Assembly (NCBI GenBank): GCA_016839605.1
Contig: JAEOTX010000188.1
Span: forward strand, 1-22,105
Source of the DNA: Candidatus Thorarchaeota archaeon
Lineage (GTDB): Archaea > Asgardarchaeota > Thorarchaeia > Thorarchaeales > Thorarchaeaceae
Length of the DNA: 22,105 nucleotides
Direction of reading: 5' to 3'
Shown here: positions 1 through 22,105 of the stretch, in pieces
Position numbering within the stretch: position 1 is the first letter of the stretch
Layout: each line of letters starts with the position of its first letter
The notes under the pieces: model-generated
The model's database searches: none
What the model was told of the DNA's origin: nothing
The model's input: the letters and a program-made list of their open reading frames with translations, nothing else
Made by a program: the position numbers and the translations under genes

Positions 1-801
1 AACGCTACAACTGATGTTGTAACTGCAGAAGAGATTAGAAACGGAATTCTTGATGACTACGACATCGTTGCTGTTCCAGGGGGATGGGCGTGGGCGTACT
101 ACCAAGACCTTGGAAGTTCGGGAGTTGTGTATATCCGCCAGTTCGTGGAGAATGGTGGTGCATTTTTTGGAGTCTGTGCTGGGGCATACTTTGCGTGTGA
201 CGGCATCAGATGGGAGGGCGGTTACATAGAGTATACACTTGATCTGTACCCGAATATTGGCAATGGGCCTATAGAAGAAATTGCGGCCTGGCCAGGTTAT
301 AACATGACGAGGATTAACCTGAACAAAGGCGCTGTAGGGCCAGACCTTTCTGGAGAGCCAGATTCCCACATTGTGATGTACTATGGCGGACCATATTTTG
401 AAACCAGTGGTACAGAGGGAGTCACTACTCTTGCTACTTACGATGCCAATGATGAGCCGGCGATAATAGCTTATGAATATGAACAGGGGCGGATAGTGCT
501 TTCAGGCCCTCATGTTGAATGGGAGGAAGATGCTGATCGAGATGGAGTGGCGTGGGTCAACGCGTATGATGATGAAGGGTCCGAGTGGAATATGATGCTG
601 AAGATTGGTCTTTGGCTCTCTGAGGGTGCTTCCACAACTTCTACTACAAGTGCCAGCACTGCTTCTGTTACAACTACTACTACGACCACTGTGAATCCCA
701 GTCCATCACCAACACCGCTCGAGATTGACCCGGTCGTTGGACTTGTTGCCATTTTCGCTGTTATTGCGGTTGCAGTCATAGCTGAAAGGTTGAGAAAGTG
801 A
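1..801 (+). CDS. BPL-N / class I glutamine amidotransferase-like hydrolase with Thr/Ser/Pro linker and C-terminal TM anchor (5' truncated by window)
   Basis: Frame is open from base 1 (NATTDVVTAEEIRNGILDDYDIVAVPGGWAWAYYQDLG...), so the track start at 127 is internal. Motifs: PGG, GGAFFGVCAGAY nucleophile elbow, YYGGPYF, LSGPHVE (Cys-His-Glu). Ends in a T-rich linker, a hydrophobic helix and RLRK. Confidence 0.8.
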   Translation, partial: NATTDVVTAEEIRNGILDDYDIVAVPGGWAWAYYQDLGSSGVVYIRQFVENGGAFFGVCAGAYFACDGIRWEGGYIEYTLDLYPNIGNGPIEEIAAWPGYNMTRINLNKGAVGPDLSGEPDSHIVMYYGGPYFETSGTEGVTTLATYDANDEPAIIAYEYEQGRIVLSGPHVEWEEDADRDGVAWVNAYDDEGSEWNMMLKIGLWLSEGASTTSTTSASTASVTTTTTTTVNPSPSPTPLEIDPVVGLVAIFAVIAVAVIAERLRK

Positions 802-837: not shown

Positions 838-902
838 TGAGCACATGTTCATGACTAGCACACTATGAACAAGAGTGTTCGGTGGGTTTTAATCGGTGTA
901 CA
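838..902. promoter_or_regulatory. Phased TGWWCA operator boxes flanking a TATA-like element upstream of the ABC operon
   Basis: TGTTCA 846, TGAACA 866, TGTTCG 876, TGTACA 897 (spacings 20, 10, 21); TGAGCA 838; TTTTAAT at 887-893. Confidence 0.6.
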
Positions 903-949
903 CCTGTTATTTTTTACTAGCTAAACGCTAAATTCAGGATGTGACATCT

Positions 950-2893
950 GTGAAAAAGAAGGAAGCACTCCTGGCACTGACTCTGGCGGTCTTTATGATC
1001 TTACCAGTGTTTGCTTTCGTACCGACTACTGCAGTAGCGCAGACACCTAAGATTATCAAGATAGGGATGTTTGACGAACCAGACAGCCTTAATCCGGTCA
1101 TGGCCTCAGAAATCAGTTCATGGAGTATGATTAATTGGATATTTGACCCTCTGGTCAGATGGGATGATAACTGGGGCATCCAACCCGGTCTCGCAGAGAG
1201 CTGGGAGTGGGCAACAAACGGCTCTCAGTTAGTCATGCATATCGACCAAGATGCGGCATGGCATGACGGAACTCCATTTACAGCACATGATGCAAATTGG
1301 ACACTCTTTACATGGACCTGGCTTGGATTTTGGGTAGGTCAGACACCTCGCATTGATCATAGAAACATCAGAGTTCCGGATGACTACACCATCGTCCTCA
1401 ATTTTGTGGACAGTGGTTATGAGAACATAACCGAGTGGGCACTTGGTGGACTACCTAATAACGCCTACAATGGAACGCCTGTACAAGTCAACAAGGAAGC
1501 ATTCCTTACAGGACTCACCTATGTGCCAATCCTCGCAAAGCATCTGTGGGATCCGGTGACATGGTGGGACCCAATTTATGGTATCGGAACTTGGTACTGG
1601 GACACAGCACTTTGGAAGGATGCAATCTGGTGGGGCATGCTCGATCCTGCGTGGCCAACACCACTCAATGGAACTGGTGCATTCATGCTGGATGAATATG
1701 TTGTAGGAGAATACATGAGATTTGATGCCAACCCCAACTACCATTTGGGCGCGCCCAACGTCGATGGCATCCTTGTCACCTTCTACGACACCGTGGAAGT
1801 CATGACTGAGGCTGTAAAAGCCGGAGAAATTGATTTCTGCGAGACTGCACCTGCATTCATTGAGCTAGGTACCATTCCTGACACGGTCACCATAAATGAA
1901 AACCCGTGGATGGGCTGGGAAGGTCTCTTGGTGAACCAGTACTATAACTACACCAATGCTCAAGGAGAATATGCAGCTCGTCCAGTCAAGCACAATGCGC
2001 TCCTTCAGCCAGAAGTGAAAAAGGCAATGAATCAGGCTATTGACAAGGCGCAGATAGCTGAAGTTGCATATCTCGGACACGCGAATGCAGCTGATTCGCT
2101 AATCCATACTGAACTCAAGTGGTATAATGATGCCCTGATTACCTTTACTCAAGGCACTGCCGCAGCTCGGGCAACTCTCGAGGCGGCTGGATGGGTAGTG
2201 AATCTAGATGGAGTCTACGAGAAGGATGTAGATGGGACTGTTGAAACACTGTCCTTTGAAATCAAGTATGTCACTGGTGTTCCGACAGACTTCACAATTG
2301 TGTCGCTCGTTGGTGCATATCTTGAGGCTGCAGGATTTGAGATCACTGCAATCCCTCTTGAAGAAACAACCTTCACTGTGGACACCGCTACAGAGACTTG
2401 GAACTTTGACATAGCTCTAACCGCCTATAGTCAGATTGCTGATCCAAATAGCATGATGCAGTATATGACCAGTGACAGTTGGATCAACCCGAATGGTGTG
2501 AACATCACAAGGGTTGATGAGATATACAAGGAACAGCAACTGACAACCAGTGATACAACTAGGGCAGCTCTCTGTGATGAGTTCCAGCAAATAATGTACA
2601 ATGATTCAAGCATCATTATTCTCGTCGAGTTCAATGATATCGAGCTGTACAGAAACGATGTCTGGGAATTTACTCACACGGACTGGGAAAGTGGCATCTT
2701 TTCAATGTGGAACATCGATTCATGGCTAGAGGTTGACGTACCAACAGTACCAACAACAACGACAACACCAGTAACAACAACAACAGAACCACCACCACCA
2801 CCACCGCCGATTCCGATGGAACTGCTCCTTGCAGTCGGCTTAGGTATCGTGGTGCTGATAGTCGTTGTAGTGTTTGTTACTAGGAAAAGGTAG
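950..2893 (+). CDS. oppA: Peptide/nickel-family (family 5, DppA/OppA-like) ABC substrate-binding protein, signal peptide plus C-terminal membrane anchor
   Basis: Family 5 signature (DSLNP...IFDPLVRWD...PGLAESWE...WHDGTPFTAHD), GTGAF, VKKAMNQAIDK. Start moved to GTG 950 because SD AGGATGTGA (936-944) lies 5 nt upstream, giving MKKKEALLALTLAVF. Eight N-x-S/T sequons; Thr/Pro linker, TM helix and RKR tail. Symbol is family-level only. Confidence 0.92.
   Translation: MKKKEALLALTLAVFMILPVFAFVPTTAVAQTPKIIKIGMFDEPDSLNPVMASEISSWSMINWIFDPLVRWDDNWGIQPGLAESWEWATNGSQLVMHIDQDAAWHDGTPFTAHDANWTLFTWTWLGFWVGQTPRIDHRNIRVPDDYTIVLNFVDSGYENITEWALGGLPNNAYNGTPVQVNKEAFLTGLTYVPILAKHLWDPVTWWDPIYGIGTWYWDTALWKDAIWWGMLDPAWPTPLNGTGAFMLDEYVVGEYMRFDANPNYHLGAPNVDGILVTFYDTVEVMTEAVKAGEIDFCETAPAFIELGTIPDTVTINENPWMGWEGLLVNQYYNYTNAQGEYAARPVKHNALLQPEVKKAMNQAIDKAQIAEVAYLGHANAADSLIHTELKWYNDALITFTQGTAAARATLEAAGWVVNLDGVYEKDVDGTVETLSFEIKYVTGVPTDFTIVSLVGAYLEAAGFEITAIPLEETTFTVDTATETWNFDIALTAYSQIADPNSMMQYMTSDSWINPNGVNITRVDEIYKEQQLTTSDTTRAALCDEFQQIMYNDSSIIILVEFNDIELYRNDVWEFTHTDWESGIFSMWNIDSWLEVDVPTVPTTTTTPVTTTTEPPPPPPPIPMELLLAVGLGIVVLIVVVVFVTRKR
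2738..2815 (+). repeat. Low-complexity (ACA)n/(CCA)n tract encoding the Thr/Pro linker
   Basis: gtaccaaca x2, then acaacaacgacaacacca...accaccaccaccaccgccg, encoding VPTVPTTTTTPVTTTTEPPPPPPPIP. Confidence 0.85.
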
Positions 2894-2911
2894 CAGTGGA
2901 TTATAGATTGG

Positions 2912-2948
2912 ACAGACAGGACTCCTGTCTGTTCATTCCATATTTTTT
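2912..2948 (+). terminator. Intra-operon stem-loop plus T-tract after the binding-protein gene (partial terminator or mRNA stabiliser)
   Basis: ACAGACAGG (2912-2920), loop ACT, CCTGTCTGT (2924-2932): perfect 9-bp stem, followed by TTTTTT at 2943-2948. Confidence 0.6.
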
Positions 2949-2979
2949 ATAATCCAAAGAGAAAACAGAGTAGATTAGG

Positions 2980-5700
2980 ATGGCATTAAGAGACGTATTA
3001 CTCAAGCGAATAGCCCAAGCAATTGTTACAATCTTCATAGTTCTAGCAATCGATTTTGTGTTATTCCATATCCTTCCTGGCGACCCAATGACCTTCCTTG
3101 CTCGAAATCCCAACCTTACTGAGGTTGCCCAAGAGAGATTGATTGAGCAATTTGGACTTGATAAGCCACTGTGGGAACAGTTTATTCTATTCCTTGGAAA
3201 CTTCCTTACCATGAGACTTGGGATGTCATTCCATTTCAGAGAGGAAGTTGGACCAATAATAATGCACCACCTCGGAAATACTCTGATCTTAGTGGTTCCT
3301 GCATCAATCGTGGCGATTGTGGTTGGAATCTGGATAGGCAAGAACTCAGCCTGGCGGCGAGGCAAGGCAGCAGACCTCTTGGGCCTTCTGTTTTCGCTAA
3401 TTACGTACTCTATTCCCACCTTTTGGCTAGCCATGTTCTTCATCATGTTTTTCGCATTTGGGCTTGGTTGGTTTCCAGGGACACCAGGATTGACCACACC
3501 AGGCATGGACTTCACGGGCGATCCAATTGGTCTTGTTGTTGATATGATATCTCACTTGATGCTTCCATGGACTGTCCTGATTGTTGCAATCTTGGGTTCA
3601 TTTGCACTAATCACGAGAAACGCTCTGCTGGACGTCTTAAGTGAGGACTATATGGTCACAGCTAAAGCCAAAGGAAGAACTGAGAAAGAACAGCTGAACA
3701 AAGAGGCGATGCCAAATGCCATGATTCCCATAACAACGGTCATCGCACTCCAGCTTGGATTTTCAGTAGCAGGGGCACTCCAGACTGAGGTGGTATTCTC
3801 CTACCCTGGGATTGGGAATCTGATTTGGGAAGGAGTTTACTATCGAGACTACCCACTCTTGCAAGCTAGCTTCTTCATGATCACTGTTGTTGTAGTATTT
3901 GCTAATCTTATTGCCGACTTCATCTACTTCTATCTGGACCCAAGGATTAGAGTTGGTGCAGAGTTCACGATTGGTGATGAGAAACCACCCAGACCGCTCT
4001 CTCATTACGGTCTAGCTGTTATAGCCATTGTCGCGCTTCTGTCTACATGGGCGGTCATAGGAATTACAACAATACTTCCTCTCTTCATTCTCATAGTGAT
4101 TCTAAAACGAAAGGGTATTGCTCAGTTCCTAAGAAACCAACTTAGCAAAATCAAGCCTTCAAACTTGCTATACGCATGGCAGAACAAGCGATCTCAGATC
4201 TTGGTTCGGTTCTCAGTGATTGCTTTATTTATCAATTTGATCGCATTGACCATCATCGCATCATCGGGAGTCTTCATCCCTGAATGGGGCTTCTTTTGGG
4301 CAGGTGCATTTTTCGGACTAGAACCATTTCCTCCTATACCCCCAGGAGTGGAATACCCCGATTGGTCAATGACACTGGCATCAATTGCACATCCATCGGT
4401 GATGCAAATCGCTCTAGTTGGTGTGACCGTCGGAGTCATTCTGAGTAGGAGAAAGAGCTTGGGTGCTACATCCAGTCGATTCATCAGAACACGAATGGGT
4501 ACGGTAGGAACTGCCACAGTAGCGATGTTCACAGGGATGACTATATTTGGAGACATTATAGCTCCATATGATCCTGAGGCATTCTTTACTGGGAATATCT
4601 ACCAGCCCCCTGATATTATGCCAGAAGCGCAATTGCTCATTCTGTCAGTGGGTGTGGCATCACTTCTTGGTGCAACCTTAATTTGGTGGATATTTGACCG
4701 ATTCAAGAGACCAGGGATTCCTAGATACTTCATCACTATTCTGAGTGGAGGGCTCATTGTTTACATCGCAGCTTTATTTGGAGCCCAATCGCTCTCTGTT
4801 GAGAACACGACTACCTTGATTTTCTCAGCTGCAATTGGTGCTATTGGCGGCGTTATCATTCTGAAGGGGCTTCTGAGTGCTAGGCTAGATTTTAGCCTTC
4901 AGAAGCTGCAAATGCATCTTCCAAGATTGGTTATTGCTCTTGTGGGAGTGATTGGCGTGGGTCTCATTGTGCAAGGCATACTGCATGCTCCATGGGTAAT
5001 ACCGCTCGAATTTCCAGGCTTCCACTTAATGGGTACTGATCAATTGGGAAGAGACGTATATAGTCAACTGATTATAGCTGTAAGAATCACACTTCTAGTT
5101 GGTATTGTGGCAACAGGAATGTCTGTAGTCATAGGCACCTTAATTGGCCTTGTTGCAGGCTACTTTGGTGGAATTATTGACTCTTTCCTGATGCGGTTCA
5201 CAGATATCTTCTTCGTGATTCCGAGCCTAATCTTGATGATTATCGTGGCGGCAGTGTTAGGCCCATCGATTGTAACACTAATTCTTGTGATTGGTTTGTT
5301 CTCATGGCCCTCTACTGCACGAATCGTCAGAGGCCAGGTATTAACAATAAAAGAGCGCACCTATATCGAGAGGGTAAGAGCAGTGGGAGGAAGTGACTCC
5401 TATATTATTACTAAGCATGTATTGACCGCAGTTGCTCCACTTGTTGTTGCCAATACAATCCTTGTCACCGCATGGGCAATTCTCTCGGAGGTTGTTTTGG
5501 ACTTCTTTGGGCTAGGAGATCCAGCAATGATCAGCTGGGGCACAATGTTGTATCTCGCATTCAGTGCAGGCTCAATGTCCAATAACCTCTGGTGGCTAGT
5601 ATTCCCACCAGGTGTCATGGTTGTGCTTCTCCTCCTTGGAGTATCTATGGTAGGATACGCTATGGATGAGATTGTCAATCCAAGACTTCGGAGGAGGTAG
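2980..5700 (+). CDS. Fused DppB-DppC (OppB-OppC) ABC permease with extra transmembrane insertions, 906 aa
   Basis: N-half is DppB-like (LPGDP, FGLDKPLWEQF, SIPTFWL, EAA loop LSEDYMVTAKAKG, RDYPLLQ, YLDPRIR). C-half is DppC-like (APYDP, HLMGTDQLGRDVYSQL, MRFTDIFFVIP, EAA loop YIERVRAVGGS, SWGTML, NPRLRRR). No stop between the halves. Confidence 0.9.
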   Translation: MALRDVLLKRIAQAIVTIFIVLAIDFVLFHILPGDPMTFLARNPNLTEVAQERLIEQFGLDKPLWEQFILFLGNFLTMRLGMSFHFREEVGPIIMHHLGNTLILVVPASIVAIVVGIWIGKNSAWRRGKAADLLGLLFSLITYSIPTFWLAMFFIMFFAFGLGWFPGTPGLTTPGMDFTGDPIGLVVDMISHLMLPWTVLIVAILGSFALITRNALLDVLSEDYMVTAKAKGRTEKEQLNKEAMPNAMIPITTVIALQLGFSVAGALQTEVVFSYPGIGNLIWEGVYYRDYPLLQASFFMITVVVVFANLIADFIYFYLDPRIRVGAEFTIGDEKPPRPLSHYGLAVIAIVALLSTWAVIGITTILPLFILIVILKRKGIAQFLRNQLSKIKPSNLLYAWQNKRSQILVRFSVIALFINLIALTIIASSGVFIPEWGFFWAGAFFGLEPFPPIPPGVEYPDWSMTLASIAHPSVMQIALVGVTVGVILSRRKSLGATSSRFIRTRMGTVGTATVAMFTGMTIFGDIIAPYDPEAFFTGNIYQPPDIMPEAQLLILSVGVASLLGATLIWWIFDRFKRPGIPRYFITILSGGLIVYIAALFGAQSLSVENTTTLIFSAAIGAIGGVIILKGLLSARLDFSLQKLQMHLPRLVIALVGVIGVGLIVQGILHAPWVIPLEFPGFHLMGTDQLGRDVYSQLIIAVRITLLVGIVATGMSVVIGTLIGLVAGYFGGIIDSFLMRFTDIFFVIPSLILMIIVAAVLGPSIVTLILVIGLFSWPSTARIVRGQVLTIKERTYIERVRAVGGSDSYIITKHVLTAVAPLVVANTILVTAWAILSEVVLDFFGLGDPAMISWGTMLYLAFSAGSMSNNLWWLVFPPGVMVVLLLLGVSMVGYAMDEIVNPRLRRR

Positions 5701-5708
5701 TAGAATAG

Positions 5709-6698
5709 ATGACAGAAACATCCTCGCCAGAAACTCCTGCTGGACAACCAGTACTCAAAGTGTCAGGGCTTAAGGTCTACTACCACATCTCTCAGGGAAT
5801 AGTCAAAGCAGTCGATGACATTGACTTCACTGTAGGTTGTGGGGAGTTTGTAGGCCTAAGCGGTGAGAGCGGATGTGGGAAGACCACTACCGCAATGACT
5901 CTACTACACATCCTTCCTCGGGAGGGAGTGGTTGAAGGTGGACAAGCCATCTTCGGCAATCGTGACATTCTCGCTTTCGACAAAAAGGCCATCGAAGATT
6001 TTCGGTGGCAGGGAGTTTCCATGGTCTTTCAGGGTGCAATGAACTCATTGAATCCAGTTCATCGTGTGATAGACCAGATGGTTGATGCAATCCTGATTCA
6101 TGAAGATGTGTCAAAGGAGAAAGCGAAAGAGATTGCACTTGAGTTGATAGAATCTGTTGGAATTGAGCGGTCGAGGGCAACTGCATATCCACATGAACTA
6201 AGTGGAGGGATGAAGCAACGTCTAATGATTGCCCTTGCACTTGTACTACATCCGCCCCTTGTGATTGCAGATGAGCCAACCACAGCGCTTGATGTGATGA
6301 TTCAGGCACAGATTCTCGATCTCTTCGGGCAGCTTAGGGATAAAACGAGTCTCTCACTCCTAATCATCACTCATGACTTGTCAGTGCTTGCTGAGACCTG
6401 TGATAAGGTCATCATAATGTATGCTGGAAAAATCGTTGAGGAAGCACTGACTGAGATTCTATTCAATGAACCAAGCCATCCATACACAAGGAAGCTCATT
6501 TCATCATTTCCAAGCATTCTTGCTGACAAGGAGATTGACTTCATTCCAGGAAATCCACCGGACCTCATTGATCCCCCCACCGGATGCAACTTCCATCCGA
6601 GATGCGAATATGCAATCGAAAAGTGTAGCAAGGAAGAACCTCCACTTGTTGATGAGGGGGGTCATAGGGTGGCTTGCTTCAGGAGGCATGAAATCTAA
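5709..6698 (+). CDS. oppD: Oligopeptide/dipeptide ABC transporter ATP-binding subunit (DppD/OppD)
   Basis: Walker A GESGCGKTT, signature LSGGMKQR, Walker B VIADEPTTALD, HPYT, C-terminal CxFHPRC-x6-C Cys cluster; SD GGAGGAGG upstream. Confidence 0.95.
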   Translation: MTETSSPETPAGQPVLKVSGLKVYYHISQGIVKAVDDIDFTVGCGEFVGLSGESGCGKTTTAMTLLHILPREGVVEGGQAIFGNRDILAFDKKAIEDFRWQGVSMVFQGAMNSLNPVHRVIDQMVDAILIHEDVSKEKAKEIALELIESVGIERSRATAYPHELSGGMKQRLMIALALVLHPPLVIADEPTTALDVMIQAQILDLFGQLRDKTSLSLLIITHDLSVLAETCDKVIIMYAGKIVEEALTEILFNEPSHPYTRKLISSFPSILADKEIDFIPGNPPDLIDPPTGCNFHPRCEYAIEKCSKEEPPLVDEGGHRVACFRRHEI

Positions 6699-7696
6699 TG
6701 GCGAATGCTATTCTCGAAACTAAGAATCTCAAAAAGTGGTTTACAGTGAGAGCAGGATTCCTCTCAAGCCTCGTTTCCAAGAAGTCTGACTCCTACATTC
6801 GAGCCGTTGATGGAGTCGACCTGGAAATCAAGCAAGGTGAGGTTTTTGGCATTGCAGGGGAGAGTGGTTGTGGAAAGACTACAATTGCAAGATTAGTTAT
6901 GCGATTGGAAACCTTAACAGATGGGGAAATCTGGTTTGAGGGAGAAAAAATCTCTGCATTCAATGAGGGGAAGTTCAAGGAGTATCGCAGAAGGATACAG
7001 ATGATCTTTCAAGATCCATATGGGTCATTGAGCAATAGCATGACCATAGGCGAGATTGTCGCAGAGCCTCTCAAGATCCATAATGTATATGCATCACCTA
7101 GTGAGATGGAGGACCGAGTAATGGCTGCCCTCGAAGACGTGGGGCTGCGTCCAGCTGAAGAGTTTGCTGGCAGGATACCACATGAACTGAGTGGAGGTCA
7201 AAGGCAACGGGTTGCGGTAGCTGCAGCACTTGTGTTGGATCCAGTCCTTCTGATTGCAGATGAACCAGTTTCAATGCTCGATGTCTCAATGCGGGGCCAG
7301 ATCCTGAAGCTATTGCTCGAGCTGAGGGAAAAGAAGGGCATTACGCTTGTATTGATAACACACAATTTGGCTGTAGCCAAGCAGATGTCTGACAGAATCG
7401 CAATCGCCTATCTGGGCAGAATCGTTGAAACTGGAGTTACGAAGGAGATTATTGACAACCCAAGTCATCCCTACACGAAAGCACTAGTTTCAGTTGTTCC
7501 TGTTCCAGAAACGGGTGTAAAGAGGGAGAGACTGTTGCTCACAGGAGAGATTCCTAGTCCCATTGATATTCCAACGGGCTGTAGATTTCATACCAGATGT
7601 CCATTTGCGAAAGACAAATGCAGCGTGGAGGAACCTGAGCTAAGGACAATGCCAGATGGACGACAGGTTGCCTGCCACGACGATGAGCAGGCATGA
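6698..7696 (+). CDS. oppF: Oligopeptide/dipeptide ABC transporter ATP-binding subunit (DppF/OppF)
   Basis: GESGCGKTT, QMIFQDPY, LSGGQRQR, IADEPVSMLD, HPYT, CRFHTRCP; TAATG stop/start overlap with the preceding gene. Confidence 0.95.
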   Translation: MANAILETKNLKKWFTVRAGFLSSLVSKKSDSYIRAVDGVDLEIKQGEVFGIAGESGCGKTTIARLVMRLETLTDGEIWFEGEKISAFNEGKFKEYRRRIQMIFQDPYGSLSNSMTIGEIVAEPLKIHNVYASPSEMEDRVMAALEDVGLRPAEEFAGRIPHELSGGQRQRVAVAAALVLDPVLLIADEPVSMLDVSMRGQILKLLLELREKKGITLVLITHNLAVAKQMSDRIAIAYLGRIVETGVTKEIIDNPSHPYTKALVSVVPVPETGVKRERLLLTGEIPSPIDIPTGCRFHTRCPFAKDKCSVEEPELRTMPDGRQVACHDDEQA

Positions 7697-7723
7697 AGCA
7701 GAGTGCATGTTTCTAAACAGAGC

Positions 7724-7801
7724 CGTTCAAGAGTCTGAAAATCTGTTCACCATTGTACACACATGTTGGCAGTCCTTTTCATCATGTTCATTCTTTGCAC
7801 A
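7724..7801. promoter_or_regulatory. Phased TGWWCA operator array upstream of the corrinoid/methyltransferase pair
   Basis: CGTTCA 7724, TGTTCA 7744, TGTACA 7754, TGTTGG 7764, TGTTCA 7785, TGCACA 7796 (spacings 20, 10, 10, 21, 11). Confidence 0.65.
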
Positions 7802-7833
7802 GCCGCATAAGTAGACAATCTGAGAGTGGTATC

Positions 7834-8481
7834 ATGGGCAATGCAATTGAGAATCTGAAACAGGCAGTCATCGATGGAGACGCTGACGCGGTATCCAAGT
7901 TCTCCGCGGAAGCACTGGAGTCCGGTGCTGCACCGTTAGATATCCTGGAAAAGGGGATTTCTGAAGGAGCAAAGACTGTCGGTGAGCAGTTTGAGAATAT
8001 GGAAATCTTCCTTACAGAGCTTATGCTCTCGGGAGAAGCTATGATGGCGGGGTTGGATGTTGTTCTGCCTCATATCCAAGCTGGAGATGTACCGAGAAAG
8101 GGAAAAGTCGTCGTTGGCACTGTGCGTGGCGATATCCACGAGATAGGCAAGAACATCTTCAAGTCGCTTCTCGTAGCTAATGGGTTCGAGGTGAGTGACC
8201 TAGGAGTCGATGTTCCAACTTCGAAATTCATTGAAGAGGCAGAGAAGACAAACGCGGACATCATTGCCGTATCAGCACTCATGACATCAACCCTTGGAGG
8301 TCAAAAGGATGTCATTGATTATCTCGAGCAGTCTGGCAATCGAGACAAGTTCATCGTTATGGTGGGTGGTGGTCCCACGAACCAGGAATGGGCAGACGAG
8401 ATTCGTGCAGATGGATTTGCTGAAACAGCACCTGAAGCTGTAAGAGTAGCAACTCAACTCATTGAGAAAAGGAGGGACTGA
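7834..8481 (+). CDS. mtmC: Methyltransferase cognate corrinoid protein (MtmC/MtbC/MttC family), 215 aa
   Basis: N-terminal cap domain (VGEQFENMEIFLTELMLSGEAM), B12-binding motif GDIHEIGKN (DxHxxG), DLGVDVP, SALMTST, VMVGGGP. ATG 7834 is preferred over TTG 7753, which would translate the operator array. Confidence 0.92.
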   Translation: MGNAIENLKQAVIDGDADAVSKFSAEALESGAAPLDILEKGISEGAKTVGEQFENMEIFLTELMLSGEAMMAGLDVVLPHIQAGDVPRKGKVVVGTVRGDIHEIGKNIFKSLLVANGFEVSDLGVDVPTSKFIEEAEKTNADIIAVSALMTSTLGGQKDVIDYLEQSGNRDKFIVMVGGGPTNQEWADEIRADGFAETAPEAVRVATQLIEKRRD

Positions 8482-8485
8482 TACT

Positions 8486-9865
8486 ATGATTCCAATCATC
8501 GAGATTGCAAAGAGGGCGCTTGATGGCAAACCTCTCATAGAGAAGGAGTATGATATGAGAGTCTTCTCGCCGAGGGTTCGCGAGCTGGTTAAGGAATACG
8601 GCATCAGCTACGATCCTGAGGTGCTTGTTCCATCCGATGATGGTCTTGCAGACGCTGTGTTCAAAGCGGCGTTTGATCTCATCTGTGATGTGGGAGTATA
8701 TTGTAAGGACACTGAGCGAATCATTGCTTTTGAGGAAAAGGAAGTCCGTAACGAACTCAAGACCTCTTATGATCATGCAGTTCTTGGTGAAGGTATGGAG
8801 CAGAGGGCTCTTCTTCCCAGGAAACCGGACTCAAAGGAAAAGCCCTGGATATTTGCCGGAGCGGGCGGTGTTACAGTCTCAGATGAGAGCATCTTCATGC
8901 GTTTGGTGGAGAACTATGCGAAGAGGATTCCAATTGCTAATGCCATAACAACTCCTTGTCTACTCTCAGTTGATGGTGCCACGATTCGAGCACGGTCGCC
9001 CCTCGAGATAGAGGGTTCAATCAGGACTGTTGTTCTGGGAAGAGAGGCCCTTAGAAGAGCGGGGAGGCCTGGACTGCCGATTATGAATGCAATAGGTACA
9101 GCTGAATCAGCAATTGCACTGGCCTCAGGTCTTCATCCAGACTTCGGACTACGAAAGACGGATGGTTATATGATAGCTGAATTGGCTGAGCTCAAGACTG
9201 ACCTTGACCTCCTTAACAGAGCCGCGTTACTACAGTCGTTGAATGTGCCTATAGCTGGCATCTATGGTCCAATCTATGGAGGATTTGCCGGTGGAGCTGA
9301 GGGCACTGCAGTCACAAGTGCAGCATTTCACATTCAAGGAATCCTGACTTATGGTGCATCCTGGACACTTTGTTTCCCCATTCATATCAAGTATACATCC
9401 AGCTCATCACCGGAATTGATCTGGCTAGCTAGCCTCTATGCTCAGGCTGTAAGTAGGAATACCAAGGTGCCTGCGCTCTATTACAACTACACTGCTGCAG
9501 GACCTTGTACAGAAATGGTCTTGCAGGAATTCGCATCAGAGTTCATTGCAGCAATCTCTTCGGGAGCCTCAATAGAAACGGGGGGTGTCGCTAAAGGCAA
9601 GTACTTCGACTATCTGTCACCTATTGAGCCGATGTTTGCCGCAGAGGTAGCGTACGCGAGTGCGGGTGTGAAGAGAGCGGATGCTAATGAGATTGTGAAG
9701 CAGATTGTTCCGAAGTTCATTGACAAAGTCCCAGATCCCCCAAGAGGGAAGCGCTTCCAGGATTCCTGTGATCCTGTGACTGGTGAACCGTCAAAGGAAT
9801 GCTTCGAGATATATGACAAGGTGAAGAAGGAAGTTACTGATCTGGGTATTGAATTCCTGTATTGA
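8486..9865 (+). CDS. mtmB: Monomethylamine methyltransferase MtmB-family homologue lacking pyrrolysine, 459 aa
   Basis: MtmB hallmarks: GVYCKDTERII, SPLE, AGRPG, ELKTD, PIYGGFAGG, PIHIK, AGPCTEM, AKG, PRGKRFQ, DLG at the C-terminus. Uninterrupted ORF with no in-frame TAG. SD GGAGG at 8471-8475 lies inside the end of mtmC. Confidence 0.9.
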   Translation: MIPIIEIAKRALDGKPLIEKEYDMRVFSPRVRELVKEYGISYDPEVLVPSDDGLADAVFKAAFDLICDVGVYCKDTERIIAFEEKEVRNELKTSYDHAVLGEGMEQRALLPRKPDSKEKPWIFAGAGGVTVSDESIFMRLVENYAKRIPIANAITTPCLLSVDGATIRARSPLEIEGSIRTVVLGREALRRAGRPGLPIMNAIGTAESAIALASGLHPDFGLRKTDGYMIAELAELKTDLDLLNRAALLQSLNVPIAGIYGPIYGGFAGGAEGTAVTSAAFHIQGILTYGASWTLCFPIHIKYTSSSSPELIWLASLYAQAVSRNTKVPALYYNYTAAGPCTEMVLQEFASEFIAAISSGASIETGGVAKGKYFDYLSPIEPMFAAEVAYASAGVKRADANEIVKQIVPKFIDKVPDPPRGKRFQDSCDPVTGEPSKECFEIYDKVKKEVTDLGIEFLY

Positions 9866-9870
9866 TGCAG

Positions 9871-11013
9871 TCATCCTAAGCGGTACTTCCTGCCAACCTC
9901 TGGTTTCTCGCCGAAGTAGAGGACTGCAGTGGAAACACCCTCCTCGCGTGCAAACTCGTCCACACCGTCGAAACGCAGAAGCGCAAGTAGAAGCTTGAGT
10001 CCAAGATCTTTCATGAAGGATGTTCGTGATCTGAGTTGCACTCGGGTTAGTTCATTCTCACTGCGTACATCACACCGCTCTAGAAGGCCAAGAGAAGTCA
10101 CACCCAATGCAGCGCGTTTCACGTGGTCGACTATACTGGTTGGAGTCTCAGATCCGTGTGGGTCAATCTGTTCTATGTAATCACGTATACTGACCACTGT
10201 TCTCTCATCTAAGGCGTCCTTGATTGTATTGTTCGTCAACCATTCCAGAAGTGATGGATTCAAAGTGACAGTCCCGCTCTGTCCGGCTTGCATCAGCATT
10301 AGCTCTCTCCGTTCTCGCCAGAGACTGAGAACCCGTCGGTCACGTTCTTCCTTGATATTTTCGAAGAGCAGGGGGTCAACCCACATTACGCTGATCTTGT
10401 TCTCAGCAACAACTTCTGCATCTACTGAGTATCCCGCTTCATCCCATTCAGCTATGAGCATCATCAAGAGTATCTCTGGCTGTTCACGCATGAGCTTGGC
10501 TGTTGCTAAGATCGTCTTCCTTTCTGGATGGACCTCAACTGACCCAAAAATGCCCATTCTCCCTAAGAGCGCTACATTACTTGCAAATGAATCAAAGGTG
10601 TTCTCCCACATGTCCTGAGGGATTGTCCCAAGCCCACGAAGTAGCTTCGTCTGCTGATGTCCTATCTTTCGCAGCCGTGCAATAAGTTCCGATGCTCCCT
10701 GACCTGAGCACCCCAACTGGGCAAGAACGGACAGAACCTGGGAACTCACAAGACCCATATCAGCGGAGTCAATGAGCGATCTCCGAAGATTCGACACCTC
10801 CATAGCGTCACAATCATCGCAGCTGGGAATATCCTTTCGAGTGCTGTAGAACCTGACAGCTTCTTCTAGTGCATCATTGATGCGTCCCGATTCACCAGCT
10901 AACTCCTTCAAGAGTTGGCGTGTGCGCGCAGAGATGGTTGTATGTAGATGCACCCGAGCTGCAGTGGACCTATGCTTCTCATTGAGCGCATCCTTTTTTT
11001 GCTCTTCAGCCAT
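9871..11013 (-). CDS. Putative transcriptional regulator: N-terminal ribbon-helix-helix, CxxC, two tandem V4R/HNOB-like domains (380 aa)
   Basis: SD GGTGA upstream of ATG 11013 (MAEEQKK). RHH-like segment VHLHTTISARTRQLLKELAGESGRINDALEEAVRFY, then CDDC, then two similar ~130-aa units. Domain calls are by eye. Confidence 0.6.
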   Translation of the reverse strand: MAEEQKKDALNEKHRSTAARVHLHTTISARTRQLLKELAGESGRINDALEEAVRFYSTRKDIPSCDDCDAMEVSNLRRSLIDSADMGLVSSQVLSVLAQLGCSGQGASELIARLRKIGHQQTKLLRGLGTIPQDMWENTFDSFASNVALLGRMGIFGSVEVHPERKTILATAKLMREQPEILLMMLIAEWDEAGYSVDAEVVAENKISVMWVDPLLFENIKEERDRRVLSLWRERRELMLMQAGQSGTVTLNPSLLEWLTNNTIKDALDERTVVSIRDYIEQIDPHGSETPTSIVDHVKRAALGVTSLGLLERCDVRSENELTRVQLRSRTSFMKDLGLKLLLALLRFDGVDEFAREEGVSTAVLYFGEKPEVGRKYRLG

Positions 11014-11071
11014 GAACATCACCAAGAGGAGCATGTTCACAATAATGTTGTAGACAAGTCTGCGTGAACAT
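11013..11071. promoter_or_regulatory. Phased TGWWCA boxes in the divergent regulator/deacylase intergenic region
   Basis: TGAACA 11013 (overlaps the regulator start codon), TGTTCA 11034, TGAACA 11065 (spacings 21, 31). ATGTTCAC 11033-11040 and GTGAACAT 11064-11071 form a perfect 8-bp inverted repeat. Confidence 0.65.
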
Positions 11072-11181
11072 AAGGTCTCCGAATCAGAATACACAGACAC
11101 TTCAGAACCGGAACGATGCTATAGCAGGGTTAATCAAGGGGAGAGGCCTGAGAGATGTTTCTAGGAGGCTTCCGTTAGAAG

Positions 11182-12471
11182 ATGACCACTGGACAGATAG
11201 AATCAGTCTTGAAATGGATCAGTACGCATCAAGAGCACCTTGTAAGACTGACCCAAGACCTTGTGCAAATTCCTAGTATTTCAGGAGAGGAATATGCAGT
11301 ACAGAAACGAGTCCACAAAGAGCTTGAACAAATGGAACTTAGTCCTCAAATGTTCAATCCTGATGACAAAAAACTCCGAAAGCATAATGACTTCTTTGAA
11401 ACCACATCTTTCACAAAGTATGGATATGAGAACAGACCGAATGTCGGAGGCGTTCTGGAAGGATCAGGAGGAGGTCGCTCCATCTGTTTGAGTGGTCACA
11501 TCGATGTTGTGTCACCAGAGCCCTTGGACAAATGGACTCGCAGTCCATGGTCAGGAGATGTAGTTGATGGCAACATCCATGGACGTGGAGCCGGAGATAT
11601 GAAGGCAGGAGTAGCTGCCATGATCTTGGCCGTGCAGGCACTTCAAGAGAATGGCATCAATCTAAAGGGGGATGTACAGGTCGAAACCACCATCGAAGAG
11701 GAGGATGGGGGAATCGGCGGAGTCTTCTATATGCGAACGGTTCGTCCCAAGACTGATGCTGCTTTTGTTCCAGAGCCAGGTAATCTTGCTATCAGTGTAG
11801 CGAGTGCTGGCGTCATGTACTTCAGAGTGACTGTGCGAGGCGTCCCTGCACACGCCGCCACTGCGCATTTTGGTGTGAATGCAGTTCAAAAGATGATGCC
11901 AGTCATAGATGCGATTCAGAGTCTCCATGAAGCGCGACAGGCTAGAATCAGTTACAGCTATGCAGAATCAGACCCAAGAATGAAGGGAAGGGCTACGACA
12001 ATTAACATCGGTGTCATCAAGGCAGGCGACTGGCCATCCACAGTTCCCGCTGAATGCACAGTTGAGTGTAGAATTGGATTTCCGCCAGGCGAAACAAGGG
12101 AAGAAGTGATGAAACAAGTAGAGGATGCTGTACAAGAAGCTAGTAAGAGAGATGACTGGCTAAAGACGAACCCACCTGTCGTAGATTGGTTTGGCTGGAA
12201 AGCACGACCACATGAGTTGGATCCAACCAATGACTTCGTACAACTAGTTAGGCAAAATGTCATTGATGTGGCTGGCAGAGAGCCAGCTTTCATGGGAGGT
12301 TCAGCTGGTCTGGACACGAGGTTCTTTGTACATCATGGAATTCCTGCTCTGACCTGTGGACCCTATGCCGAGAGAATCCACTCCTTTGATGAAATCGTGA
12401 GTATTGAGTCAGTTGTGCAGACATCTCAAGTCATTGCAAAGACAATGCTCGAATGGTGCGGCACTCAATAA
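11182..12471 (+). CDS. ArgE/DapE-family (peptidase M20A) metal-dependent deacylase
   Basis: IPSISGEE, LSGHIDVV, GRGAGDMKAG, IEEEDGG, VPEP, AHAA...GVNA, INIGVIKAGDWPSTVP, IHSFDE; SD AGGAGG upstream. Confidence 0.92.
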   Translation: MTTGQIESVLKWISTHQEHLVRLTQDLVQIPSISGEEYAVQKRVHKELEQMELSPQMFNPDDKKLRKHNDFFETTSFTKYGYENRPNVGGVLEGSGGGRSICLSGHIDVVSPEPLDKWTRSPWSGDVVDGNIHGRGAGDMKAGVAAMILAVQALQENGINLKGDVQVETTIEEEDGGIGGVFYMRTVRPKTDAAFVPEPGNLAISVASAGVMYFRVTVRGVPAHAATAHFGVNAVQKMMPVIDAIQSLHEARQARISYSYAESDPRMKGRATTINIGVIKAGDWPSTVPAECTVECRIGFPPGETREEVMKQVEDAVQEASKRDDWLKTNPPVVDWFGWKARPHELDPTNDFVQLVRQNVIDVAGREPAFMGGSAGLDTRFFVHHGIPALTCGPYAERIHSFDEIVSIESVVQTSQVIAKTMLEWCGTQ

Positions 12472-15980: not shown

Positions 15981-18900
15981 TCATCCTGACGTCGCATACT
16001 TGACGAAATCCTCAGCGAGCACACGATCAAGTGTTTTCGCAAAGAACTCAGCGTTCTCTCTGGTGAATACAAGAGGGGGTTTGATCTTGAGGACATTATT
16101 GAAGGGACCATCCGTGCTTATCAGAATCCCCAAGTCTTTCATGCGATTGGCGACATACCTCGCCTGTTCCGTTGCAGGAGTTAGAATCTCATGGTTGAGG
16201 ACTAGCTCCACTCCAATGAATAGGCCAAGTCCTCTGACATCACCGATGATCTTGTGTTTCTTCTTCAAGATGTATAACTGGTCAATCAGGTAGGCACCGA
16301 CTTGGTGTGCGTTCTTTTGAAGGTCTTCCTCTTCTATTTCATCAAGGACCGCCATCCCAACAGCACATGACACTGTATTTCCGCCAGTAGTGCTAAAGAA
16401 CTCCATCCCAGTATTGAAGGACTCTGCAATCTCGGGTGTTGTTATGACAGCACCTAGTGGATGGCCATTTCCAATCGGTTTGCCAAGAGTTACGATGTCA
16501 GGAACAACGCCCTGTGTTTCAAAGCCCCAAAAGTGACTGCCAACCCGTCCGAATCCCACCTGCACTTCGTCTACGATGCATACTCCTCCAGCATCGCGAA
16601 CATAACCAAACGCATCTCGGAGATAGTTCTCAGGAAATATGATTTGACCAGCGCATCCCATCAGGGGCTCACAGATGAAAGCCGCCACTCCCTTTTCTTT
16701 ACCCAAGTCAAGAGTCTTCTTTAGAACGTCCATAGCGTATTTCTCACCGGCTTCCGGATTATCAGACTTGAAAAGGCCTCGATAGACATCGGGCGTCTTC
16801 ACCTTGTGAACATGTGGGGGAGCACCCTCACCCCCGGGTCCATCGAACTTGTATGGGCTGATGCCCACAAGGGTGCCTGTGTTTCCATGATAGGCACCAT
16901 CAATCACAATCAATTCGGTCTGCCTGGTGTGCGCATATGCCAGCCTAAGCGCGAGCTCGTTGGCTTCGCTACCACTATTGACAAAGAAACAAACACTCAG
17001 AGGATCTGGCATCTTGCTACAAAGCCGTTCTGCGTATCTCACTAAGTTTTCGTGAAGATACCTAGTGTTGGTGTTCAATACTCTCGCTTGGCGTATGAGT
17101 GAGGCTACCACCCTTGGATTGGAGTGACCTACATGGGGGACGTTATTTCGACCATCCAAGTATTGCTTGCCATTCGCATCATAGAGATATTGCATCTCGC
17201 CGCGGACAATATGGAGTGGTTCATCGTACGCAGTTCTAAGAGACTTGCCAATGTAACTCTGGCGAGCCTCCAAGACTGTCATTGTATCCATAGGAACCAA
17301 AATACGATCTTCTGGTAGTTGCAGGATAACGTTTGGATCCGGACAAATACTTAGCCACACTTCTCTCATACTTGCAGGAGCAACACCGAAGAAATCACCT
17401 TCTTTGTCGAGCATGTCTACAATCAGTTGAAAGTGCAAATGAGGCGGCCATCCGCCGTTTTCCGGGTACGATCCTACTTCACCAATCTTTTTGCCCTTCC
17501 TTATCTCGTCGCCCTTAGTCAGGCCTATAAGAGATCCCTTAGTCAGATGCGCATATAGTGTGTAGAATTTCAGGTCAGTGAAACCCGCGTCGTGCTCCAG
17601 AATTATTGTAGGCCCGTTGTCTAGGGGCAAATCGTTATCCTTGAGACTATGAACCGTCCCATCAAGTGGAGCCATGATCTGCGTTCCAGGCTCTAGTATT
17701 AAGTCAGTAGCAATGTGAACAGTCCTCGACTCCCCTGCGGGATTCAAATATTGCTCACCAGCATAGATCAGTCTGGCTTCATTGTATCTGGCAATGCCAA
17801 ACTTTGCCTCTCCCTCAGATATCCCTCGCGACATAATGGCTGAAAACTTATCGATGTCAGTTAGGTCAGAGGTTTTCTCGATCTCAAGGCTGCCAACACT
17901 GAGGTCTATCACTGTGAAGGGAGCCTTTCGAATGTCAAATTCAATTAGCGGGCCTATATCCCTAGCATTCTCTCTTAGCCACTCGACAACTTTCTCACTG
18001 TTGACGCATGGTGGTAGACCACACGCTTGACGGAACGCATATGATGCGAATCTAGGATGAACTTCCATAAGGCGCTGCAGGAGATCCCAGACGTTCTCCT
18101 GACTTATGAGCAGATATTTGTTATCGGGCTCCAGTTGTGTCTGATACCCCGCAATTGCAATACTTGTAGCGAGTCTAGCCAGAATTAGAGGGAAGAGGAG
18201 CTCGATCTCGGTCTCGGTCAAAGGGTAGTTGGAATGATAGCCCTCAACAATCTTAGATGCAGCTCCTATTGGATCCGCCTTGCCCAATAATGCATATGCA
18301 ATCGCCACAGCGAGCTCATTGATAGTATGAGTCAACACCATATCACCAAAGTCCAGAATGCCAAACCGAGCCTCCTCGGGGGAATAGGCATTTGAAACAA
18401 GGACATTGTAGTCATTTGCATCATTGTGGATAACACTAGTTCTGAGGTCAGGCATACGTGGAACAGCCAAAGTATCATAGATTGACATGACGTAATCTAT
18501 AGCTTTGGCCTTTTCAGAATCTTTGACGTACTCCTTGTACTTCTCTATCACTGAACTAGCTAGTTTGAGATCCCAATAGAACATCCTCTTTGCAGAGGGA
18601 TGGGAAAAGCCCTCAAAGCCACAGGTCAGGGCGCCAATAAATTCTCCATATTCTTTCAAAAGGCCAGGTGAGTGCGGTTTTAGCTCGGCGAATAACATAC
18701 CTGGTAGATACCGCAAGAGTCTCACAAGATGTTCGTTCTTCTTGGAGTCTTTCAGGGTGAGAATCTCGTCACCGTCCTTGGACAAGACAAAGCGAGGAAC
18801 ATTGAATGGGATATTCTTGTCAGCCAAGTGCTGCATGGCTCGGTGCTGCATATCCAAGATTTCGCGAGTTTCAGATTTGGCGGCAATTTTCAAAACGTAT

Positions 18901-19049
18901 TCGTCGCCGAAGTCCGTTCGAATGTAAAAGTTCAGATCACGTTCACCTGGAAGCTCCTTGACAGAACCTTTCACTCCGAATTTGGTCTCAGCAATCTTCC
19001 GTGCTTCCTCATCTGTGAATCGAGGACGATTGGTATCTCGTTCGAACAT
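15981..19049 (-). CDS. Three-domain fusion: APH/hydroxylysine-kinase-like phosphotransferase + M23 peptidase-like domain + class III PLP aminotransferase/phospho-lyase (1022 aa)
   Basis: Kinase: [28 protein letters not shown]23: HIATD (HxxxD), YTLYAHL, PPHLHFQ (HxH). Class III aminotransferase: [77 protein letters not shown]. Confidence 0.92.
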
Positions 19050-21780: not shown

Positions 21781-22105
21781 TTAGAGGCTTCTGAGCATCA
21801 GAGTATCAAGATATGTATCCATGGCGAACATGGTCAGGGTCCGATCCACTGCTGGCATCTCACGAAGTGAGTCAACGATGAAGTTGTTCATCTCTTGAAC
21901 ATCCTTCGCTCTCACTTTCAGAAGCACATCGAACTCACCACTCAGAACATGGACCTCCTGTACGAATGGATGCTGAGTGATTTCTTCACAGAATTCACGC
22001 TGAGAAATGACCTTTCTACTCCCCGGCACCCGATAGCGAATAGTAATGAGGATTAGGGCCAAAGTAGGACGACCAAGTTTTACGGGATTGAGGACTGCAG
22101 TGAAT
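21781..22105 (-). CDS. Lrp/AsnC-family transcriptional regulator (C-terminal RAM domain; 5' truncated by window)
   Basis: Frame is open to the window edge: FTAVLNPVKLGRPTLALILI...HPFVQEVHVLSGEFDVLLKVRAKDVQEMNNFIVDSLREMPAVDRTLT, the typical Lrp linker and effector domain. Confidence 0.9.
   Translation of the reverse strand, partial: FTAVLNPVKLGRPTLALILITIRYRVPGSRKVISQREFCEEITQHPFVQEVHVLSGEFDVLLKVRAKDVQEMNNFIVDSLREMPAVDRTLTMFAMDTYLDTLMLRSL

Follow-up and report, generated by a model that had tools for sequence, protein, structure and literature searches.

The window analysed here is the whole of contig JAEOTX010000188.1 (22,105 nt; designated C126), part of a 3.08-Mb, 80% complete metagenome-assembled genome (MAG) of Candidatus Thorarchaeota (GenBank assembly GCA_016839605.1). 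It carries the operon of an Opp/Dpp-type ATP-binding cassette (ABC) importer, the genes mtmC and mtmB for a corrinoid protein and a pyrrolysine (Pyl)-free MtmB-family methyltransferase, an opposite-strand gene for a predicted regulator, which we designate REG, and, divergent from the latter, a gene for an M20-family deacylase (Table 1). Open reading frame listing and Pfam searches agree with this gene set, which had been claimed in an earlier note made from the sequence of the stretch. We consider it probable that the window covers roughly one half of an accessory catabolic island of ~25 kb that is specific to one Thorarchaeota family, in which an Opp-type importer, amide- and peptide-cleaving hydrolases and an optional mtmCB pair, switched by REG through shared promoter boxes, would serve the catabolism of an N-methyl compound.

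Table 1. Predicted genes and promoter/operator elements of the island in the window (positions in contig C126)
Feature	Position	Strand	Basis or composition
BPL_N / class-I-glutamine-amidotransferase-like (PepE/DJ-1-like) gene, 3' part	1..801	+	Pfam BPL_N 78.7 bits; contig end cuts gene
SBP-operon promoter/operator (predicted)	846..902	+	TGTTCA 846, TGAACA 866, TGTTCG 876, TGTACA 897
Family-5 (Opp/Dpp/Nik-type) solute-binding protein (SBP), signal peptide	950..2893	+	Pfam SBP_bac_5 170.9 bits
Fused single-chain DppB-DppC-type permease (PERM), 906 aa	2980..5700	+	Pfam BPD_transp_1 x2, BPD_transp_1_N, OppC_N
Two Opp-type ABC ATPases (ATP1, ATP2)	5709..6698, 6698..7696	+	Pfam ABC_tran and oligo_HPY in each
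mtmCB promoter/operator (predicted), canonical 47-bp module	7744..7790	+	TGTTCA 7744, TGTACA 7754, TGTTGG 7764, TGTTCA 7785
MtmC/MtgC-type corrinoid protein, 215 aa	7834..8481	+	Pfam B12-binding and B12-binding_2
Pyl-free MtmB-family methyltransferase, 459 aa	8486..9865	+	PF05369 309.7 bits
Regulator REG, 380 aa	9871..11013	-	Pfam-less ORF
REG promoter/operator (predicted)	11013..11070	-	TGTTCA 11070-11065, TGAACA 11039-11034, TGTTCA 11018-11013
M20 ArgE/DapE-family deacylase, divergent from REG	11182..12471	+	Pfam M20 and M20_dimer

In the MAG, the island is split between contigs C85 and C126, and it is contiguous in relatives with longer contigs. In one of these relatives (G375), the minus strand carries SDR, CE4, CN hydrolase, M28b and a class-III aminotransferase (AT), followed by M28a; then come the BPL_N gene, SBP, PERM, ATP1, ATP2, MtmC and MtmB on the plus strand, REG on the minus strand and M20 on the plus strand. 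Synteny bridges the assembly gap between the start of C85 and the start of C126, which contains M28a and the 5' end of the BPL_N gene. The full-length BPL_N orthologue in G375 has 327 aa (88.6 bits) and weak matches to PepE/S51 and DJ-1. This gene adjoins the SBP gene in all orthologous loci and is a conserved first member of the island.

The order from the BPL_N gene through SBP, PERM, ATP1, ATP2 and MtmC to MtmB, with REG on the opposite strand, is the same in two genera, and three more genera, of which G392, G335 and G320 are the representatives, have the same gene set in a shuffled order. That the set persists although its order changes is a good argument for functional coupling. Each of the 17 genomes of the family that contain MtmB also contains REG; otherwise, REG occurs only in G335, along with a fragment-like match in G312. 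It always adjoins mtmB or, in G335, the ABC operon. The gene content, synteny, operators and co-occurrence reported here were directly observed in these genomes. The earlier note had grouped the ABC operon, M20, mtmCB and a regulator in one unit; synteny and the conserved boxes described below both agree with such a conserved set, which is probably co-regulated.

TGWWCA-type boxes mark the promoters of the importer operon, of mtmC and of REG. Upstream of mtmC, they lie at offsets 0, +10, +20 and +41, the third (TGTTGG) being degenerate, and a weak TATA-like element, CTTTTCAT (7775-7782), is located between the third and fourth boxes. Across 16 orthologous mtmC promoters, the four boxes and a T-rich element show little or no variation (consensus cTGTtCA n4 TGTnCA n4 TGTTgG n6 CTTTTC n4 TGTTCA), whereas the flanks are unalignable. 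This conservation across 16 loci amid drifting flanks is the strongest evidence that the boxes are real. The SBP promoter is a layout variant, with a TATA-like TTTTAAT (887-893) between its last two boxes, and the variant is kept in seven orthologous loci and in G320. At the REG promoter, a TATA-like ATTATTG (11046-11040) abuts the TGAACA box and lies ~27 nt upstream of the start codon, the A of which is the last letter of the third box. A start codon within a box and a TATA-like element at this distance would fit autorepression of a leaderless gene. Most orthologous loci share the spacing of these boxes; two of them, L045 and L052, have a degenerate start-codon box, and all three boxes are intact in G335. 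The earlier note had assigned the same boxes to all three promoter regions of the module: this held for SBP and mtmC, whereas the boxes of the third region belong to the promoter of REG itself and not to that of M20.

The hexamer TGTTCA occurs 30 times in the window vs. 18.0 +/- 3.8 times in shuffled sequences, none of 100 shuffles reaching 30, and the composite TGWWCA-N4-TGWWCA-N4-TGTT occurs once vs. 0.00 expected. Throughout the 3.08-Mb genome, the composite pattern is confined to island promoters: TGWWCA-N4-TGWWCA-N4-TGT has only two sites, one at the mtmC promoter and the other at C85:81. We also considered clusters of three boxes within 75 bp as a genome-wide marker of the island and rejected them, with 10 seen vs. 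7.2 expected; only the exact module discriminates. Two opposite-strand TGTTCA hexamers, 5 nt apart, are found at 21885-21901, in or beside the Lrp/AsnC-type gene at the end of the window.

The module on C85 precedes an operon that encodes AT, an M28 peptidase, a CN hydrolase, a CE4 (PuuE-like) amidohydrolase and an SDR protein. It is located upstream of all 20 AT orthologues (at least 65% identity) and is absent from all 10 paralogues (at most 55% identity), and M28a carries a module copy of its own. The regulon had been claimed in the earlier note to comprise ABC, M20 and MtmBC; these limits were too narrow, as AT, two M28 peptidases, the CN hydrolase, CE4, SDR and the BPL_N/PepE-like protein were found in addition. 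M20 scores 291.1 bits with the ArgE/DapE subfamily model TIGR01910 (cut-off 217.6) and contains an M20_dimer domain; no NCBIfam equivalog (ArgE or DapE) reaches its cut-off, and the nearest solved protein is the uncharacterised 3pfo. Its tie to the regulon is by synteny and not by boxes at its own promoter in the window: an orthologue is found inside the AT operon in G392 (genus g16) and G335 (g10) and, in G320 (g6), downstream of AT and M28 on the same strand. In genus g12, a CE4-SDR pair, not M20, is divergent from REG. PDB and NCBIfam searches gave no specific function for AT, the CN hydrolase, CE4 or M28. Another class-III aminotransferase domain occurs elsewhere in the window (15981-19049, minus strand) as part of a 1022-aa fusion with an APH-type kinase domain and an M23 peptidase domain; the NCBIfam model PRK06148 ('hypothetical protein') has a length like that of this fusion and is also among the matches of the island aminotransferase.

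The importer has the components that define the Opp/Dpp/Nik type, namely SBP_bac_5, two BPD_transp_1 domains and two oligo_HPY ATPases, all above the Pfam cut-offs. Its binding protein is distant from solved binding proteins (best E 1.6e-17), and every NCBIfam equivalog (NikA, Opp4A, CntA, OppA, DppA and GsiB) remains far below its cut-off. The protein is Trp-rich, with 31 Trp in a 653-aa open frame (4.7%; 4.1-5.2% in orthologues), and has a Trp-rich insert at about residues 195-235. We rejected this insert as evidence for a quaternary-amine cage, given that its length and sequence vary among orthologues and that it is present in G335, which has no mtmCB. The permease fusion is full-length in all orthologous Thorarchaeota loci. 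The Thermoplasmata relatives have separate permeases, one of which is an OppC with PKD domains.

MtmC starts at ATG 7834, contains the motif GDIHEIG (DxHxxG) and ends 4 nt upstream of mtmB. Its best NCBIfam match is MtgC, at 222 bits (below the cut-off of 310). MtmB far exceeds the PF05369 cut-off of 25 bits and covers profile positions 3-450 of 450, and its reading frame contains no in-frame stop or TAG. It aligns over its full length with MtmB of Methanosarcina barkeri (1L2Q/1NTH; E 8e-64), the position of Pyl-202 being occupied by Met. This Met is invariant in 13 homologues and is followed by a 4-residue insertion. Because it has Met at the Pyl position and no UAG-encoded Pyl, the protein is a member of the family rather than a bona fide monomethylamine methyltransferase. 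It is the sole MtmB-family protein encoded in the genome. The nearest relatives (88-96% identity) come from MAGs annotated as Thorarchaeota, Hermodarchaeota, Sifarchaeia or Promethearchaeota; homologues elsewhere are found in Bathyarchaeia (52-63%) and Thermoplasmata (42-48%), and Methanococcoides is absent from the 79 nearest MtmB genomic loci. A further MtmC-MtmB pair is present in one relative, G372 (contig C37; L047/L161), at 69% and 67% identity; it lacks an upstream TGWWCA module, and its surroundings contain neither ABC nor REG nor hydrolase genes.

Opp-type uptake beside Pyl-free MtmB is not restricted to Thorarchaeota, since about eight Thermoplasmata loci have an SBP_bac_5/Opp operon 3-8 kb from mtmCB; these loci are interrelated and do not represent independent counts. 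In one Thermoplasmata MAG (L217; OY970070.1, 257153-278520), a methyltransferase island unites MtmC-MtmB with a homologue of MttB, a pterin-binding methyltransferase, a histidine kinase of the PAS-GAF type and an SBP_bac_5/Opp transporter. In the neighbourhood survey of Pyl-free mtmB that the earlier note had suggested as a check, family-5 proteins recur in Thermoplasmata and REG is found in every MtmB-positive genome of the family; most homologues outside it are paired with MtmC only.

No second methyltransferase or activator had been seen in the window, and the earlier note had concluded that they must be encoded elsewhere. This was confirmed: an MtrH orthologue (61% identity) followed by RACo is located on C117/C219, where the RACo gene runs off the end of C117 and continues at the start of C219 across an assembly gap that synteny bridges. 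The link to the island comes from G320, in which an operon next to REG encodes MtmC, MtmB, MtrH (234 bits, PF02007) and RACo (264 bits, PF14574). MtrH and RACo are also adjacent in a Bathyarchaeota homologue locus. The genome holds CdhC and Mch, in line with the Wood-Ljungdahl-type C1 pool that had been postulated, the pathway being of the tetrahydromethanopterin (H4MPT) type. This type of MtrH is present in 51 of 86 genomes of the family, far more widely than the island. TGTACA boxes occur upstream of the MtrH-RACo operon, and we rejected the operon as a member of the box regulon because even the nearest relatives do not share these boxes. Given its wide distribution and the lack of a conserved promoter box, MtrH-RACo is best regarded as a shared, separately controlled module.

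The REG family has 55 members in a collection of 5.8 billion proteins; those with a named organism all come from Thorarchaeota/Promethearchaeota MAGs and bear the label 'hypothetical'. An exhaustive profile search of 1.84 billion representatives recovered ~10 clusters of remote relatives, one of which joins the N-terminal module to a receiver domain. In REG, residues 20-28 form an invariant RVHLHTT(I/V)S followed by predicted helices at 29-39 and 45-59 (pLDDT about 80); the strand is unformed in the monomer model. An invariant CxxC (residues 65-68) lies between this ribbon-helix-helix (RHH)-like N-terminus and a long helix, and in a dimer it could form a four-Cys metal or redox site. In an AlphaFold2 model built from 57 sequences (pLDDT 79.8), residues 89-219 resemble BcsD (Z 8.0, 115 aligned residues, rmsd 3.6), TRAPP/Bet3 subunits (Z 6.1-6.8), H-NOX (Z 5.7-6.8) and the phenol-sensing domain of DmpR (Z 5.8), while residues 290-370 match ACT/ferredoxin-like domains. 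Foldseek matched REG to a Thorarchaeota TRAPPC3 with a probability of 0.99 but an E value of 0.04. Searches of the Atlas gave no usable match for residues 12-75 and, for whole REG, a single unconfirmed lead ('AF_0136 family C-terminal domain', PF27313, score 0.94).

From these observations we infer the box-binding factor, its ligand, the substrate and every catalytic step as follows. Each transcription unit would start with a 47-bp promoter made of three boxes phased at 10 bp, a weak TATA and a fourth box two helical turns further on. A REG oligomer would bind the boxes on one face of the DNA, bracketing the TATA, and would repress its own leaderless gene; a small ligand may be sensed through the H-NOX/V4R-like domain. 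In the presumed pathway, a peptide-like or N-acylated nitrogen compound would be imported and taken apart by the hydrolases. Through MtmB, an N-methyl group of the compound, or of one of its breakdown products, would reach Co(I)-MtmC; an MtrH-type methyltransferase would then transfer it to H4MPT and the Wood-Ljungdahl pathway, and RACo would re-reduce oxidised corrinoid. Judging from the gene content, the importer is of the peptide/opine/nickel type, amides of several kinds may be cleaved, and one amino group is probably transaminated. The best-fitting substrate is a small nitrogen compound that is N-methylated and either peptide-like or N-acylated.

Several observations weigh against this scheme. 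Conserved boxes are missing from the MtrH-RACo promoter and, in the window, from that of M20, where a TATA-like TTAATC lies near 11129 and the nearest REG box is ~60 nt away. G335, a genome of 85% completeness, possesses REG, the ABC operon, the BPL_N gene and an AT-M28-CN hydrolase-M20-CE4-SDR set, all with modules, with no MtmB-family gene in the genome, and REG directly abuts the ABC operon. Demethylation was placed at the core of the module in the earlier note; as G335 keeps the island and its regulator without mtmCB, the demethylase is better described as an accessory add-on. Outside the family, Pyl-free MtmB homologues of Bathyarchaeia and Thermoplasmata mostly pair only with MtmC and, together with G335, this means that the substrate of the demethylase could be unrelated to the hydrolases. 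As to the regulator, REG has no Pfam match up to E 10 and none of 12 orthologues tested matched an RHH hidden Markov model (HMM). The suggested RHH assignment derives from the sequence pattern and predicted helices, and the fold matches (overall Z 5.7-8.5) give middling scores for the sensor domain. Because of the missing RHH HMM match and these scores, we use 'RHH plus H-NOX/V4R-like sensor' as a working description of a putative regulator, not as a family assignment.

The independence of the demethylase can be taken further. In such a case, mtmCB would be a self-contained demethylase for a quaternary amine (choline, tetramethylammonium or betaine), inserted between the ABC operon and REG and using a borrowed local promoter design, so that its substrate would differ from the compound of the hydrolases. 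The island of G335, the pairing of the outside homologues with MtmC only and the likeness of the corrinoid protein to the glycine-betaine protein MtgC would all suit this idea, as would the fact that the only characterised Pyl-free MtmB uses free tetramethylammonium and choline (PMC13044021). We nevertheless regard it as unlikely, given that the full four-box module precedes mtmC in 16 of 16 loci, even where mtmCB stands apart from the ABC operon (G392 and G320), that REG is always located beside mtmB, and that Opp-type transporters recur beside Pyl-free MtmB in Thermoplasmata. The narrower model of the earlier note, in which the importer takes up an N-acyl-N-methyl amino acid or a small peptide containing methyl-lysine, M20 deacylates it and MtmB demethylates it, gains from the clustering of ABC, M20, mtmCB and REG, which are syntenic or co-clustered in five genera. 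It also gains from the M20 score above the ArgE/DapE subfamily cut-off and from the class-III aminotransferase family, which includes omega-amino enzymes (acting on ornithine, gamma-aminobutyrate or putrescine). However, it leaves at least nine further regulon genes unused, M20 has no conserved box of its own, the G335 island stands without mtmCB, and no residue-level or ligand pointer leads to the named substrates; we find this model rather improbable.

A different chemistry is conceivable if the compound is a methylated carbamoyl compound or cyclic amide, for example a hydantoin, dihydropyrimidine or ureide: CE4 would open the ring, the CN hydrolase and M20 would remove the carbamoyl group, AT and SDR would dispose of the amino acid, and MtmB would take the N-methyl group. 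The best named NCBIfam match of CE4 is allantoinase PuuE, which is also among its PDB matches, and the CN hydrolase resembles Nit2 and an archaeal beta-ureidopropionase-type enzyme. All such matches are far below the family cut-offs, though, and a peptide-type importer with three exopeptidase-like genes (two M28 and one PepE-like) suits peptides better, which makes a ureide or N-heterocycle a very doubtful substrate. Equally doubtful is the possibility that the boxes are operators of another factor or a special basal promoter type, REG being a non-DNA-binding sensor or an enzyme. In its favour, no DNA-binding HMM matches REG, a search of the PDB with the REG profile gave no solved structure up to E 10, and an Lrp/AsnC gene lies at the end of the window. 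Yet the boxes in their composite form are found genome-wide only at island promoters, the presence of REG tracks the island, most orthologues have the REG start codon inside a box, and a receiver-domain fusion, as seen for the N-terminal module of REG in a remote relative, is typical of output domains.

Among known systems, the closest is MtqB of Methanococcoides methylutens Q3c, reported in 2026 as a Pyl-free MtmB that demethylates tetramethylammonium and choline; it is the only Pyl-free MtmB with a demonstrated function, and its uncharacterised homologues occur in Asgard archaea (PMC13044021). Pyl-free MtmB homologues number ~1000 sequences in archaea and bacteria, Asgard archaea included. 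The active-site signature of MtqB comprises a conserved Met, a conserved Cys and aromatic residues. The Thorarchaeota pair shares with MtqB/MtqC a Pyl-free MtmB-family enzyme and an adjacent corrinoid protein. MtqB, however, belongs to a methanogen, its methyl group passing to coenzyme M via MtqA/MtbA, whereas the Thorarchaeota relatives show an MtrH-type partner and a context of Opp importer, amidases and private regulator. With MtmB1/MtmC of M. barkeri, the proteins have in common the Pfam family and a corrinoid partner with DxHxxG; they differ in the Met that replaces Pyl-202, the 4-residue insertion and the absence of an in-frame TAG. Non-methanogenic systems of MttB-like, MtbC-like and MtrH proteins have been predicted in Asgard and TACK archaea (PMC11291895, PMC9723677). 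The proposed logic is alike, with a Pyl-free methyltransferase, a corrinoid protein and an MtrH-like protein that would feed an H4MPT- or tetrahydrofolate-linked Wood-Ljungdahl pathway without Mcr. Those systems are built on MttB (COG5598), and no Opp importer, amidase set or defined operator/regulator is part of their description.

The predicted switch has its nearest parallels elsewhere. Cooperative RHH repressors with tandem subsites include omega of pSM19035, MetJ, Arc and CopG, and NikR combines an RHH domain with an ACT-like sensor. REG and the island boxes resemble these systems in the helically phased short subsites, an autoregulated-looking REG promoter and a putative N-terminal beta-alpha-alpha pattern followed by putative sensor domains, the C-terminal one being ACT/ferredoxin-like. 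Unlike these regulators, REG has no RHH HMM match, its middle domain is H-NOX/V4R/Bet3-like, and its family is confined to Thorarchaeota. We found no published description of a comparable Asgard switch; a search of the literature for Thorarchaeota and ribbon-helix-helix yielded only a virus paper and a census of two-component systems.

The compact regulon, with its dedicated importer and hydrolase set, narrows the search for a second substrate class of Pyl-free MtmB, and the 47-bp promoter and private regulator make up a directly testable gene switch in Asgard archaea. The MtrH-type link supports non-methanogenic methylotrophy into the Wood-Ljungdahl pathway in Thorarchaeota, which fits the predictions made for other Asgard lineages (PMC11291895, PMC9723677). 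More speculatively, and at present with little likelihood attached, the enzyme with Met for Pyl may demethylate a non-quaternary N-methyl amine, such as sarcosine, an N-methyl amino acid or a methyl-lysine residue, released from the imported peptide-like compound by the peptidases and amidases of the island, constituting a Pyl-independent route for secondary amines that is switched by a new RHH/H-NOX-like family of sensor-regulators. If true, Asgard archaea would gain with it their first defined transcription-factor regulon.

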